Assembly (NCBI RefSeq): GCF_022846255.1
Contig: NZ_AP025682.1
Length of the DNA: 64,000 nucleotides
Source: Escherichia coli
GTDB taxonomy: Bacteria > Pseudomonadota > Gammaproteobacteria > Enterobacterales > Enterobacteriaceae
Strand: one strand, 5' to 3'
Part shown: positions 5,534 to 47,700 of the stretch, piece by piece
Numbering within the stretch: the first letter of the stretch is position 1
Layout: the number at the start of each line of letters is the position of its first letter
Notes under the pieces: generated by a model
Databases searched by the model: none
What the model was told of the DNA's origin: nothing
Seen by the model: only the letters and a program-made list of their open reading frames with translations
Position numbers and translations under genes: made by a program

Positions 5534-8500
5534 ATGTCGGTATGTCTGAAACCAGGAAAAATCATTGTGCTTCTGGGCATGTTGGCAGCCTTTATGCTGT
5601 CTGACTTTGCACGGGCAGGAGTGGAATGGCAGACATATCCTGGTTCTACAGGCGAGTTTAACGGTACAGTTCCTATTGCCGATAGCGCCAGCGTACCCGT
5701 CTATCAGGGAAGCGTTCAGCTTGATCCTGCTGCATCTCATGATGTGGCGTTTTCTGCTAAACCGAATGAATTTAGCGTTGACGATGACGCTGCTAACCTG
5801 ATAGTCGCTAATCCTCAGGACAGTGAAGGCGACCAGTTTTCCACACCACCTGCGCTGCGCTGGGAAAAACAAACGCCGCCGACCGTTAGCCTGGTGTGGG
5901 CCGATGCCGCCACGCCGGATACGCCGCTTAATCCACAGCCTACCGCCAACCGTAGCTTTTGCGCTCAGGGCCTGGCCGGGCGTTCGCTGGTGGCCTGGCC
6001 GCAGATTGATGCGCAGCAGACCATTCCACTGCTTTATCTGCTGACTTCGACCGGTTATCCCTATGAGGGGACGGTGGCGCTGGCTGACCAGAAAGTGACG
6101 CTGAACATCGCGCCCGCGCAGGGCGATTTAATCTCGGTGAGCGCCAGTGGTTATAACGAAACGATCGCGGCGGCGAAAACCACCGTTGGTGACACCATCA
6201 CGCTAACTGTTACCACCAAAGACTGTCAGGGCAACGTTGCGGGCAATATTCCTTTTATTATCAAACGACAGGATGCGAAAAACCGCCAGGATGCGGTGAA
6301 TAACACCGCACCGGTGGTGCTGGATAGCACCGAGTTAACGACGACCGCGACCGAGTATCACGGCACATCGGATGCCAACGGTACGGCAACCATCACGGTG
6401 ACCCAACCTAATGGGCCCGGCGTCAAAACGCCGCTGGTGGTCAGCATCTCCGGCATTGCGCAAACCAGTGAGACGGCGGTTATTTTTACCGTACTCACCA
6501 GCCCGGACGTGGCGCAGGCCACGATGTGGGGCCATATGGCGGAAACGGTTGAGGCTCATGGCTACACGTTCAGCAGGCCAAAACTGGCGGCAGAAGTCAG
6601 CAATGAAAATGCCACGGTCGTCGATCACAACGAAACCTGGTCAACTTTCACCTGGAGCGGGGCAGACAGCCATTGCACCGTGCTGCCGGGCATGCGCCAT
6701 TTCGGCGCACTGGCGACCGTTATTCCCACCACGGTACAGACTGTCCTCGGCTGGCCGATGCAGGATGATTATTACTGGACATCGCTGGCGGGCACTACCG
6801 GGCAGCACCATGCGGCGGATGTCTCTAACCGTGCTGAAGCGCAAAAGCCGGATAGCACCACGTTTCTTGTAAGCTGCGTGGACAAACCCGCGCCTGACGT
6901 CGAACCGAAAATCGTCCTTACGCCAGAAAACTATGATGATACGGCACAGGCGATGAAAGCGAAGGTGGGTGAGGACGCCACGATGCGTCTGACGATCACC
7001 GACAATAAAAACAACGATCAACCGCTGGCGTATTACTACTTCTCGCTGCATCTGGATGACGGCGTTAACCGCAAAAATCAAACCGATCCTGCCTGGGAAG
7101 CTCATCCGGTACAGATTGCTGGCGGCAGTAATTTTCGCCAGGTCGACGCACATACCTATGAGGGCATGACTGATGTCAACGGTCAGGCTTCGCTAACCCT
7201 GAGCCAGCCTGGTGGCGCGGGCGTTAAAACTCACATTACGGCGAAAATGCGCAGCGATTTTAACGCCACGGATGCCAAAGATGTGATTTTTACCGTAATC
7301 ACCAGCCCGGACAGCGACAAAGCGCGGATGTGGGGCCATATGCGCGGCATTATTGAGTCCGGCAGTCTGTATAAACGCCCGTTGCTGGCGGATGAAACCG
7401 AGCATGAACTGGGAACAGTGCGGGAAAACAACGAAGACTGGGCGTTGTACGATCAAAACACCAGTATGCAGGCGGAATGCGGGGTGGGTCATATACCGCG
7501 CCAGAGCTCACTGGAAAGCCTGTTTTCAGCCCATCCCGGTAACGCGATTGGCACTGAGTATGGCTGGCCCACCGCACAACAGAGCTACCTAAGCGCGGTG
7601 GAGCAAGAAACGCATTCATCGGTGAATCTGGGGAACGGGAGCGTCGACAGCTATTCCGGCTTTAAGCAGAATTACCTCTCCTGTTCGGGTAATGAGATGG
7701 TAGCGAATGTTGAAGTCAGCACCGATCATGATGTGTCTGTTGGCACCCAAGCGCAAGCCAAAGTGGGTGACACCATCGTAATGACCGTGCGTACGATTAA
7801 CTCGCTAAATAATTCCCCGGTACCCTTTAGCGCATTCACCATTACCAAAGGTATGGGATATAACCGAGCGGGACAGGTGAGCGGGTTTGATGACCCGAGT
7901 AGCGGCGCAATCACGATGGATAACTCGCAATATGGTACATCACAGCCATCGATGGTTTATGCGGGAACAACCGATGTCCGGGGCGTGGCGACGGTCGAGA
8001 TTAAACAACCGCAGGGCGTCGGGCTAAGAACGGCGCTGAGCGTAACGCCGGTAAATTCCTACCTGCCGAATACCGTTAACTACAGCGTTATTTTTACCAC
8101 CCCAACCAGCCCGGATGTTTCCGGCGCGCAGATGTGGGGCCATATGGATGAAACGATTACCGTTGATTCATCAACCTTTAGCCGGCCTAAGCTGGCGGCG
8201 GAAATCGCCAGCCCGGACGGAACCCTGACCGAAAATAACGAAATCTGGGCGCGCGTGAGCCAGGCCAATACGTCCAGTACCAGCAAAGGCGGCTGCGGCA
8301 CCAATATGCTGCCGCGTCGCTCCCAGCTAAGCGCGTTGTATAGCGCCAACAGTGGTAACGCGGTGCAAACGACGCACGGCTGGCCAACGCAACGTCAGCC
8401 CTACTGGAGCAGCTCACCGGCGGATGTGACACCGCACTTTTTCACGATAGCGCTGAACGATGGCGCGCAGGCCATCGGCGGCAATACGCCGGTTTACGTC

Positions 8501-29106: not shown

Positions 29107-30396
29107 ATGACGCGCCGTGCTATCGGGGTGAGTGAAAGACCGCCACTTTTACAGACAATCCCGCTTAGTTTGCAACATTTGTTCGCCATGTTTGGTGCAA
29201 CCGTCCTGGTGCCCGTCTTATTTCATATTAACCCGGCGACTGTACTGTTATTTAACGGTATAGGAACACTGCTGTATCTCTTCATCTGTAAAGGGAAAAT
29301 TCCGGCTTATCTTGGTTCCAGCTTTGCCTTTATTTCACCGGTATTGTTACTGTTGCCGTTAGGGTATGAAGTCGCGCTGGGCGGCTTTATTATGTGCGGC
29401 GTGCTGTTCTGCCTGGTTTCTTTTATCGTGAAGAAAGCGGGGACCGGCTGGCTGGACGTGCTGTTTCCACCTGCGGCAATGGGCGCAATCGTTGCCGTCA
29501 TCGGTCTGGAGCTGGCGGGCGTAGCTGCCGGTATGGCGGGTTTACTCCCGGCTGAAGGGCAAACGCCAGACTCCAAAACCATCATCATCTCTATTACCAC
29601 CCTGGCGGTCACGGTTTTAGGTTCCGTGCTGTTTCGTGGTTTCCTGGCAATTATCCCGATTTTAATTGGCGTGCTGGTGGGGTACGCGCTCTCTTTCGCA
29701 ATGGGAATTGTCGATACCACGCCGATTATTAATGCTCACTGGTTTGCGCTGCCGACCCTCTATACGCCGCGCTTCGAGTGGTTTGCCATTCTGACTATTC
29801 TGCCAGCGGCGTTAGTGGTTATTGCCGAACACGTAGGGCACCTGGTCGTAACGGCTAATATCGTCAAAAAAGATCTGCTGCGCGATCCAGGTCTGCACCG
29901 TTCGATGTTTGCTAACGGCTTGTCGACCGTGATCTCCGGCTTCTTTGGCTCCACGCCAAACACCACTTACGGAGAAAACATTGGCGTGATGGCGATCACC
30001 CGTGTTTACAGTACCTGGGTTATCGGCGGTGCGGCGATTTTCGCTATCCTGCTTTCCTGCGTCGGTAAACTGGCTGCTGCTATCCAGATGATCCCATTGC
30101 CGGTGATGGGCGGCGTTTCGCTGCTGCTTTACGGTGTCATCGGTGCTTCCGGTATTCGTGTGTTGATCGAATCGAAAGTGGATTACAACAAAGCACAGAA
30201 CCTGATCCTGACTTCCGTTATTTTGATCATCGGCGTCAGTGGCGCGAAGGTAAACATTGGCGCGGCGGAGCTGAAAGGTATGGCGCTGGCGACCATCGTC
30301 GGTATCGGCTTAAGTTTGATCTTCAAACTGATTAGTATGCTGCGCCCTGAAGAAGTGGTGCTGGACGCAGAAGACGCGGATATAACAGACAAATAA
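29107..30396 (+). CDS. uraA: Uracil:H+ symporter
   Basis: GAGGA upstream of the ATG at 29107; translation [20 protein letters not shown]… (429 aa), polytopic. Confidence 0.95.
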
Positions 30397-30490
30397 TGTA
30401 CCGACCGGGCAGTGTTGCTGCCCGGTTCAAACATCATGGGATTCTGTGGTAAACTTCTCGCGATTTTGTGAAATCCTGGTTGAGGTATCT

Positions 30491-31192
30491 CTGAACACAC
30501 CGGCACAGCTCTCTTTGCCACTTTATCTTCCTGACGACGAAACCTTTGCAAGTTTCTGGCCGGGGGATAACTCCTCTTTACTGGCCGCGCTGCAAAACGT
30601 GCTGCGTCAGGAACATAGCGGTTACATCTATCTCTGGGCACGCGAAGGCGCGGGGCGCAGCCATCTGCTGCACGCGGCTTGCGCGGAATTGTCGCAGCGT
30701 GGCGATGCGGTGGGCTATGTCCCGCTGGATAAACGCACCTGGTTTGTTCCGGAAGTGCTCGACGGTATGGAGCATTTGTCGCTGGTCTGTATTGACAACA
30801 TTGAGTGTATTGCCGGCGATGAGTTGTGGGAGATGGCGATTTTCGATCTCTACAATCGAATTCTGGAATCGGGCAAAACACGGTTGTTGATCACCGGCGA
30901 TCGTCCACCGCGGCAGTTGAATCTGGGATTACCGGATCTCGCGTCGCGTCTCGACTGGGGGCAGATCTACAAATTGCAGCCACTTTCTGATGAAGATAAG
31001 TTGCAGGCGCTACAGTTACGCGCGCGTTTGCGTGGTTTTGAACTGCCGGAAGATGTGGGGCGTTTCTTGCTGAAGCGGCTCGACAGAGAAATGCGCACGT
31101 TGTTTATGACGCTGGATCAGCTGGATCGTGCGTCGATTACCGCGCAACGCAAGCTGACCATTCCGTTTGTGAAAGAAATTCTGAAGTTGTAG
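30491..31192 (+). CDS. hda: DnaA-inactivating (RIDA) protein Hda
   Basis: AAA+ protein. Start placed at the CTG at 30491 (233 aa, GAGGT RBS) following the reported CUG start of hda; the ORF track begins at the upstream ATG 30446. Confidence 0.8.
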
Positions 31193-31206
31193 ATAAGGTG
31201 TTTATT

Positions 31207-31300
31207 GTCGGATGCGGCGCGAACGCCTTATCCGACCTACGCGAAGTTAATCCATAGTATTCGTAGGCCGGATAAGACGCGGCAAGCGTCGCATCCGGCA
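31207..31300. repeat. Pair of REP elements (BIME-like) between hda and yfgD
   Basis: GTCGGATGCGGCGCGAACGCCTTATCCGACCTAC and the inverted copy GTAGGCCGGATAAGACGCGGCAAGCGTCGCATCCGGCA. Confidence 0.6.
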
Positions 31301-44757: not shown

Positions 44758-47700
44758 TATTCCGGGCGCGGCTTCAGCGGGAAGCGGCGGCGCACCAGCA
44801 CAAAGAACAGCGGCACGAAGTAAATAGCCAGAATAGTGGCCGAAATCATCCCGCCCATTACGCCAGTACCCACCGCATGCTGACCACCGGAACCGGCACC
44901 TGTGCTGGTTGCCATTGGCAATACGCCGAAGATAAATGCCAGCGAGGTCATCAGAATCGGGCGTAAACGCTGACGGCAGGCGTGGAGCGTCGCTTCAAAC
45001 AGGTCGTGGCCTTTTTGGTTCATCTCGTTAGCAAACTCGACGATCAGGATAGCGTTTTTCGCCGATAAACCAATGACCGTTAACAGACCCACCTGGAAGT
45101 AAACATCGTTTTCCAGCCCGCGCATCCAGGTTGCCAGCAGCGCGCCGATAACCCCCAGCGGCACGACCAGCATTACCGAGAACGGCACCGACCAGCTTTC
45201 ATACAATGCCGCCAGACACAGGAATACCACCAGCAAGGAAATGGCGTACAGCGCCGGAGCCTGCGCGCCGGAAAGCCGCTCCTGATACGACATCGCCGTC
45301 CACTCCAGACCAAAGCCGTTTGGCAACTGCTTCACTAACGATTCCATAATATCCATCGCCGTACCGGTACTGACCCCCGGTGCGGCTTCCCCAACAATCT
45401 CAACCGCAGAATAACCATTATAGCGTTCCAGACGCGGCGAGCCTGTCTCCCAGCGTGAGGTCGCGAAAGCAGAGAAGGGCACCATGCCGCCATCTTTATT
45501 TCGGACATACCAGAGATTGATGTCATCTGGCAGCATGCGATACGGCGCAGCTGCCTGCACATAGACTTTCTTCACGCGACCGCGATCCATAAAGTCATTC
45601 ACATAGCTAGAACCCCAGGCGGTTTGCAGTGTGTCGTTAATATCGTCGATAGCAACGCCCAGCGCCTGAGCTTTACGCTGGTCGATATCAATCTGCAACT
45701 GCGGACTGTCGTCGAGGCCGTTATGGCGCACACGGGTTAGCTCCGGGTTTTCCGCTGCCAGCGCCAGCAACTGGTTTCGTGCTGCCATCAGCGCATCGTG
45801 ACCCGCTCCAGCGTGGTCCTGCAACTCCATATCAAAACCCGCAGAACTACCAAGACCGCTAATTGCTGGCGGGCTGCTGGCGATAACGCGAGCTTCTTTA
45901 ATCTTGTTAAACGCCTTCGTTGCACGCTCGATAATGGCAAACGAGGTGCCGGTCTTACTGTCGCGTTCGCTCCAGTCTTTCAGGCGGATAAACATTCGCG
46001 CCACGTTTTGCCCGTTACCCCCAGGGCCAGAACCCACGGTGGCAAACACCGACATGATGTTGTCTTTTTCATGGGTGAAGTAATATTTCTCGATTTGCTC
46101 AACGACTTTCAGGGTCTGTTGCTGGGTTGAACCGCTGGGCAACTGTACCGAGGTAGTAAACATGCCACGGTCTTCCAGCGGTAAGAACGACGTCGGCAAA
46201 CGCAGGAACAGGAACACCATGCCGCCAAGCAGCAGGACATAAATCACAATCCAGCGCAGGCTACGGTGGAGAATTTTCGCCACCCCTTTTTCGTAGCGTT
46301 CGGCGTTGCGGTTAAACATCTGGTTAAACCAGGCAAAAAAGCCTTTTTGCCCGTGATGCTCACCTTTTTTCAGTGGCTTAAGTAGCGTGGCACACAGAGC
46401 AGGAGTGAGGATCATCGCTACCAGTACTGACAGCACCATCGCCGCAACAATGGTAATAGAGAACTGGCGATAGATGGCACCGGTGGTGCCGCCGAAGAAG
46501 GCCATTGGCACAAATACCGCCGAAAGCACCATCGCAATCCCGACCAGTGCCCCCTGGATCTGCCCCATCGATTTACGTGTGGCTTCGCGAGGAGTGAGTC
46601 CTTCCTCACTCATAATACGTTCGACGTTTTCCACCACCACGATGGCATCATCCACCAGCAGACCGATCGCCAGCACCATCGCGAACATGGTTAAGGTGTT
46701 GACACTGTAACCGAAGGCGTAAAGCACGGAGAAGGTTCCCATCAACACCACTGGCACGGCGATAGTGGGTATCAGCGTGGCGCGGAAGTTTTGCAGGAAC
46801 AGATACATAACGAGGAAAACCAGGGCGATAGCTTCCAGAAGCGTTTTCACCACGTCTTCAATGGAGGCTTTAACAAACGAGGTGGTTTCATACGCCACCT
46901 TGTATTCCAGTCCGTGTGGAAAATACTGCGCCAGCTCGTCGAGACGATTGAGCACCAGCTCCGCTGTCGCCATTTCGTTCGCGCCGGAGGCCAGTTTAAC
47001 CCCCAGCCCGGAGGCTGGCTTACCATTGAAGCGGCTAAGATAATCGTATTTCTCCGCCCCCATTTCGACGGTGGCGACATCGCCCAGCCTTACCTCTGAG
47101 CCGTCCTGATTCACCCGCAAGGTGATATCGCGGAACTGTTCTGGTGTTTGCAGCAGTGACTGGGCGTTAATGGTGGCGTTGAGCGCCTGCTTATCGACGG
47201 AAGGCGTACCACCAAGTTGCCCAACCGCAATCTGCGCGTTCTGTGATTCAATGGCATCGGTGACATCTTTAGCCGTCATCTGGAAACTGTTGAGTTTCGC
47301 CGGGTCCAGCCAGATACGCATGGAATATTGCGAACCATAGGCATCGATATCCCCGACGCCATTCACGCGGCTTAACGGGTCCTGAATATTACTGGCAACA
47401 TAATCGGCAATATCCTGCTTATCCATCGAACCATCGGTAGAGACGAAGGCAATGGTCAGAATGTTGGTATCGCCGGTTTTACGCACCGTCACGCCCTGAT
47501 TTTGCACCGCCTGCGGTAACTTTCGCATGGCTGATTGCAGCTGGTTTTGTACTTGCTGCACGGCTTCGTCCGGATCGGTGCCTGCTTTAAAACTTAACGT
47601 GACAGATGCCTGACCGGTGCCGCTGCTCTGAGATGACATATACATCAGATTATCGAGGCCCGTCATATTTTGCTCGATAACCTGGGTCACGGTGTTTTCC

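Follow-up and report, generated by a model that had tools for sequence, protein, structure and literature searches.

In the Escherichia coli window analysed here (the whole 64,000-nt stretch of contig NZ_AP025682.1), the DnaA inactivator Hda is almost certainly made as a 233-aa protein initiated at a CUG codon (CTG at 30491-30493), on an mRNA transcribed from an extended -10 promoter and carrying the Shine-Dalgarno (SD) sequence GAGGU, and the GTG at 30446, with which a mechanically called open reading frame (ORF) begins, lies upstream of that mRNA. The CTG start is in itself not new, as it was published in 2008 and is already present in RefSeq, EcoGene and structural work, and the CUG start and the transcription start site (TSS) were both demonstrated by others. 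The additions made here are minor, and comprise the overlap of the promoter with the upstream GTG, the finding that the CUG and SD geometry does not vary across the order, and an inconsistency of annotation outside the Enterobacteriaceae; the conservation of the CTG, the SD, the spacer between them and the -10 element was established in the present comparison.

The hda locus and its annotated start

By sequence comparison, the DNA around hda belongs to E. coli and matches strain LF82 at 100% identity over 1 kb, with the gene order upp, uraA, hda, arsC/yfgD, bepA. Mechanical ORF calling places a 248-codon ORF at 30446-31192 (+), of which the CTG at 30491-30493 is the 16th codon. The first-pass annotation had this ORF opening with an ATG at 30446, which is incorrect: the opening codon is GTG, and the ATG closest to it, at 30436, is out of frame. 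The features of the region are as follows.

30403-30427 (+): hairpin right after the uraA stop codon, with an 11-bp stem and a 3-nt loop
30426-30431 (+): putative weak -35 element TTCAAA (tentative), at -36 to -31 and 18 nt from the -10 hexamer
30446-30448 (+): GTG opening the mechanical 248-codon ORF, not a start codon, at -16 to -14 of the hda promoter
30447-30455 (+): extended -10 element TGgTAAACT, with TG at -15/-14 and the hexamer at -12 to -7
30462 (+): hda TSS (G), from Cappable-seq in strain EDL933, the sequence of which is identical to the window
30462-30490 (+): hda 5' untranslated leader of 29 nt, from the TSS to the CTG, with no codon periodicity
30482-30486 (+): SD sequence GAGGT, with a 4-nt spacer to the CTG (5 nt when counted from the equivalent of the GGAGG core)
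30491-30493 (+): hda initiation codon CTG (CUG), decoded as fMet, from RefSeq, EcoGene 3.0 and conservation
30491-31192 (+): hda coding sequence (CDS), 233 codons plus TAG, with matches to NF005982, TIGR03420 and PDB 5X06
30506-30523 (+): beta-clamp-binding motif QLSLPL, codons 6-11 of the CTG-initiated form, matching PMC5397184

That Hda initiates at a CUG to give 233 residues had been proposed in the first-pass annotation, and current annotation agrees. RefSeq records a CTG start and a 702-nt, 233-aa hda in LF82 (1692-2393 of locus L001, equal to window 30491-31192) and in K-12 MG1655 (b2496, 2618075-2618776, NP_416991.2), and likewise a CTG start and 233 aa in EDL933, with the CDS start at 3421810. 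The version number of NP_416991.2 implies that this sequence had been revised. A passage of EcoGene 3.0 (PMC3531124) describes the hda CTG start as experimentally shown, citing Su'etsugu et al. 2008 (J Biol Chem 283:36118), and names yfjD, also with CTG, as the second confirmed case. The crystal structure of the E. coli Hda-clamp complex (PMC5397184) numbers Hda 1-233, with the clamp motif 6-QLSLPL-11, the Arg153 finger, a lid at 165-233 and a mass of 26.6 kDa, and the PDB 5X06 construct reads as a tag followed by MNTPAQ. As regards start-site data, the main texts of a retapamulin Ribo-seq preprint and of a Salmonella riboproteogenomics paper do not mention hda.

Two further observations concern the neighbourhood of the gene. 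Between the hda stop and arsC, at window 31205-31300 (+), there are REP/BIME-like palindromic repeats (gtcggatgcggcg...cgcatccggca), and a 1-kb query from this locus gave a median of 3 and a maximum of 6 matches per E. coli genome, consistent with such repeats, where the 80-nt start region gave 1. A supplementary table of the 3'-end mapping by Adams et al. (bioRxiv 10.1101/2020.07.18.207399) holds an RNA end antisense to hda at MG1655 2618272 (+ strand), which corresponds to approximately window 30995 on the minus strand.

Promoter and transcription start

A Cappable-seq study of EDL933 (PMC10469882 Table S5) lists a single gene-specific TSS for gene 17915 (EDL933_RS17915, hda), at 3421839 on the minus strand, found under all eight culture conditions. 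As the EDL933 CDS starts at 3421810, and MG1655, EDL933 and the window do not differ in promoter, leader or start sequence, this TSS falls on G30462, 29 nt upstream of the CTG, which is thereby at +30. It is also exactly 7 nt after the extended -10 element TGgTAAACT, so placed that hda would be transcribed from a sigma70-type promoter of its own (30447-30455).

The -10 element is strongly conserved: in 81 aligned sequences the TG (30447-48), the TA and the ACT (30450-55) are invariant, with a free base between TG and TA, and the pattern TGnTAnnnT recurs in Yersinia, Hafnia, Erwinia, Proteus, Dickeya and Xenorhabdus. This conservation suggests that the extended -10 is the working promoter element of hda. 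A consensus promoter and terminator scan of 30300-30600 found nothing. For the promoter this result was rejected as a false negative, since the extended -10 is invariant and the TSS has been mapped; a generic scan misses the hda promoter because just 8 of its 12 positions agree with the consensus. TTCAAA at 30426-30431 may tentatively be regarded as a weak -35 element, of which just the TT(C) is conserved, and these same bases form part of the hairpin that follows uraA. Within the 3' arm of that hairpin, GCCCGGTTC is kept across species in the alignment, and the arm adjoins the hda promoter and extends into the putative -35.

The GTG at 30446-30448 overlaps the TG of the extended -10. With the TSS at 30462, this GTG is inside the promoter and absent from the primary hda mRNA. 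The first-pass annotation had regarded all 15 codons between 30446 and the CTG as 5' leader, which holds for the 29 nt of 30462-30490 and fails for the 16 nt of 30446-30461, these being promoter DNA made up of the extended -10 and the discriminator. For genome scans the locus illustrates how a promoter can be absorbed into a mechanically called ORF, the supposed start codon GTG here being part of an extended -10 element; the E. coli annotation in RefSeq already allows for this.

Leader and Shine-Dalgarno sequence

The leader carries the GAGGT that the first-pass annotation had seen ahead of the CTG, and it is found at 30482-30486, 4 nt upstream. GAGGT is invariant in the alignment and in the six other genera (87 sequences), and 80 of the 81 aligned sequences have 4 nt between it and the CTG. 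Pairing with the 3' end of 16S rRNA is predicted at -8.9 kcal/mol for the CTG and at -4.3 kcal/mol for the GTG at 30446, against a background with a mean of -4.0 kcal/mol in which about 7% of windows reach -8 or below. The GAGGU of the leader would thus put the P-site of the 30S subunit on the CUG at 30491, which would be read as fMet by the initiator fMet-tRNA to give the 233-aa Hda.

The bare motif GAGGT-N4-CTG is within chance in the window (3 observed, 1.03 +/- 1.09 expected, with at least 3 in 8 of 100 shuffles), and the meaning of the hda copy comes from conservation and experiment. The other two exact matches are at 7667-7678 (-) and 47085-47096 (-). A regulatory RNA structure in the hda leader was considered and rejected, as the leader has no unusual secondary structure (fold z = +0.6) and an Rfam search of it gave no match. 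The leader also contains an out-of-frame mini-ORF at 30468-30494 (+), GTG AAA TCC TGG TTG AGG TAT CTC TGA, the terminal TGA of which overlaps the hda start codon (CTGA). This TGA is a by-product of the invariant CTG-AAY, and the frame of the mini-ORF start is not conserved across species.

Conservation of the start codon and of the upstream stretch

The comparison set consisted of hda loci from the genomes of 80 Enterobacteriaceae species and from six genera of other Enterobacterales families (Yersinia, Hafnia, Erwinia, Proteus, Dickeya and Xenorhabdus). Codon 1 is CTG in all 87 distinct Enterobacterales hda CDSs, with TTG, GTG and ATG absent. There are 27 invariant-Leu columns in the alignment, and the 26 besides codon 1 each use 3-6 synonyms, with the major codon at 28-86%; that codon 1 is fixed as CTG while these vary indicates something more than the conservation of leucine.

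Upstream of the CTG the picture is different. In the 45 nt before it, the column entropy at the three codon positions is 0.69/0.69/0.65, compared to 0.15/0.05/0.68 in the 20 codons after it, and the distance from the -10 to the SD ranges over 24-30 nt across the aligned sequences, so that indels are not multiples of three and the frame is broken. Judged by its sequence, the 45-nt stretch from the GTG to the CTG behaves as non-coding DNA, with no codon periodicity and with frame-breaking indels. The first-pass annotation had proposed conservation of the upstream 15 codons in other enterobacteria as a check, and its expectation was borne out, as there is no conservation as coding sequence.

Frame by frame, 60 of 79 species have an in-frame stop no more than 15 codons upstream of the CTG (27 of them at 7 codons and 26 at 14). 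In 46 of the 79 there is no ATG, GTG or TTG between the upstream in-frame stop and the CTG, so their conserved N-terminus can be made only from the CTG. A GTG in frame at -15, as in E. coli, was found in only 7 of the 79. Within E. coli the 80-nt start region is near-invariant, with 5362 of 5426 records at 99% identity or more and 64 below 99%, which makes a population-level test uninformative. E. coli SCPM-O-B-8794 (locus L004) has a 1-nt insertion, CCCTGG for CCTGG, at the equivalent of window 30474-30478, and the upstream GTG is thereby out of frame within E. coli itself.

Ten species (L007-L009, L011-L017 and similar Citrobacter loci) have an in-frame ATG 24 nt (8 codons) upstream of the CTG, in the context ATG AAA TCC TGG GTT GAG GTA TCT CTG. 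This ATG is approximately 6 nt from the predicted 5' end of the mRNA and has no SD.

Outside the Enterobacteriaceae, the start region of Yersinia (L084), Hafnia (L085), Erwinia (L086), Proteus (L087), Dickeya (L088) and Xenorhabdus (L090) reads GAG GTG (C/A)TT CTG AAY, at approximately 401-410 of each locus. In these six genera the GTG is what gene callers take as the start of Hda, with a product of 235 aa (MLLNTP...); this GTG would be the 3' end of a Shine-Dalgarno GAGGTG, and the CTG follows it at the E. coli spacing. The Enterobacteriaceae codon at the same position is GTA or GTC. Both the 233-aa and the 235-aa Hda are found in public databases for a given species, for example Hafnia paralvei (P0182 and P0178). 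Gene callers that ignore CTG mis-annotate hda, a point which RefSeq already takes into account for E. coli.

The N-terminus of Hda

The Hda of the window scores 474.8 bits with NCBIfam NF005982 (cut-off 268) and 281.7 bits with TIGR03420 (cut-off 194.8), and its sequence is the same as that of Hda in chain E of PDB 5X06. On the long form the NF005982 alignment covers residues 14-248, and TIGR03420 starts at Q6, so the N-terminal extension (residues 1-13) is outside the family models. In the CTG-initiated product, residue 153 is R (the arginine finger of Box VII in the AAA+ domain), and the calculated mass is 26.63 kDa, compared to the published 26.6 kDa and to 28.37 kDa for the long form. The numbering of PMC5397184 (QLSLPL 6-11, Arg153, lid 165-233, 26.6 kDa) thus fits the 233-aa form alone.

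The position of the N-terminus matters in view of the part that Hda plays in switching off DnaA-ATP, and the clamp-binding motif must be at the extreme N-terminus. Distant Hda homologues have the motif 2-13 residues from their N-terminus, and in the 233-aa Hda, with the motif at residues 6-11, it would be N-terminal and exposed; in a GTG-initiated form QLSLPL would occupy residues 21-26, unlike the rest of the Hda family. RIDA activity (stimulation of DnaA-ATP hydrolysis with the DNA-loaded clamp) has been established for the identical K-12 Hda, WP_001307333.1 (PMC5397184).

Other possible start sites

The hairpin after uraA is predicted to fold at -22.2 kcal/mol (z = -3.44) and is terminator-like but has no U-tract, and a simple terminator scan did not call it; it may act as a uraA terminator of a weak or non-canonical kind, or may stabilise the 3' end. 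With the U-tract missing, read-through transcripts that contain the GTG may exist despite the TSS table, and since the frame in E. coli itself is open from the GTG at 30446, sequence alone leaves room for the long form. It is therefore conceivable that transcripts reading through from uraA yield a minor 248-aa isoform beside a main CUG-initiated form. Such dual initiation is nevertheless very unlikely: there is no usable SD ahead of the GTG, the extension is unconserved even within Escherichia, its frame being broken by the insertion in L004, and 15 extra residues would bury a clamp-binding motif that is near the N-terminus family-wide.

Early studies with a 248-aa Hda employed a mis-extended protein. 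A start at the GTG of 30446, as in older annotations and mechanical ORF calling, draws on the same open frame, and automatically predicted protein sets contain a cluster of the 248-aa form with 3510 member sequences (P0152). As an account of Hda synthesis it is hardly tenable, as the GTG is at -16 to -14 of the mapped TSS and so missing from the primary mRNA, the SD pairing before it is at background level, it occupies -15 in just 7 of 79 species and mostly gives way elsewhere to stops or frameshifts, residues 1-13 of its product are outside the family models, and the literature and RefSeq use 233 aa. Initiation at the near-cognate ATC at 30473 or CTG at 30476, both in frame and inside the mapped mRNA, would give a product 5-6 residues longer and has a negligible probability, these codons being upstream of the SD, 11-14 nt from the 5' end and in a poorly conserved stretch with indels, with an in-frame stop 7 codons upstream of the start CTG in 27 species and an MNTPAQ N-terminus in RefSeq and structural work. 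Initiation at the CUG of 30491 is accordingly the reading adopted below.

A weak start codon, possibly under selection

Hda governs the speed at which DnaA-ATP is switched off after the start of replication. Compared to AUG, CUG is a much poorer initiation codon, and IF3 discriminates against it. Hecht et al. (2017) reportedly put its efficiency at roughly 1% or less of that of AUG. Starts at AUU and AUA are also disfavoured by IF3 (PMC9723500). Poor initiation at the CUG would most likely hold Hda scarce.

A change from CUG to UUG takes one silent transition, yet was never seen in the 87 Enterobacterales sequences. Neither the CUG nor the SD geometry changes across the order, and TTG, GTG and ATG are completely absent at codon 1. 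These observations suggest that a weak start has been selected for, and such a start may serve to keep Hda low. A more ambitious reading, which we regard as improbable, is that the CUG is actively maintained as a regulatory device, that discrimination by IF3 sets Hda synthesis, and that the 235-aa MLLNTP annotations are mis-called from the GTG of the SD. If this were true, the capacity for DnaA-ATP inactivation would be coupled to growth rate, or to the condition of the machinery for translation initiation.

Comparison with known systems

The AUU start codon of infC is a sensor in an IF3 autoregulatory loop. Like yfjD (CTG), infC and pcnB (AUU), hda has a near-cognate start that is placed by a normal Shine-Dalgarno sequence and read by the initiator tRNA; unlike infC, it shows strict conservation of its CUG without a known regulatory loop. 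With extended -10 (TGnTATAAT) sigma70 promoters, the hda promoter shares the TG at -15/-14, the A-11 and T-7 of the hexamer, a distance of 7 nt from the hexamer to the TSS, and a weak -35; it differs from their consensus in its hexamer TAAACT (4 of 6 matches), and is known here from its sequence and TSS. As a protein, the window Hda is like the Hda/HdaA family (NF005982, TIGR03420; PDB 5X06, 3BOS) in its full-length match, N-terminal clamp motif, AAA+ fold and Arg153. In terms of the start, distant homologues (40-55% identity) are unlike the window hda, their annotated start being an ordinary Met a few residues ahead of the motif, and among the homologues compared the CTG start was seen only in the Enterobacterales. 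The closest system is hda of E. coli K-12 (b2496), which is the same gene, with the same promoter, leader, start and annotated 233-aa product, and from which the copy in the window, carried by an LF82-like strain, does not differ in substance.
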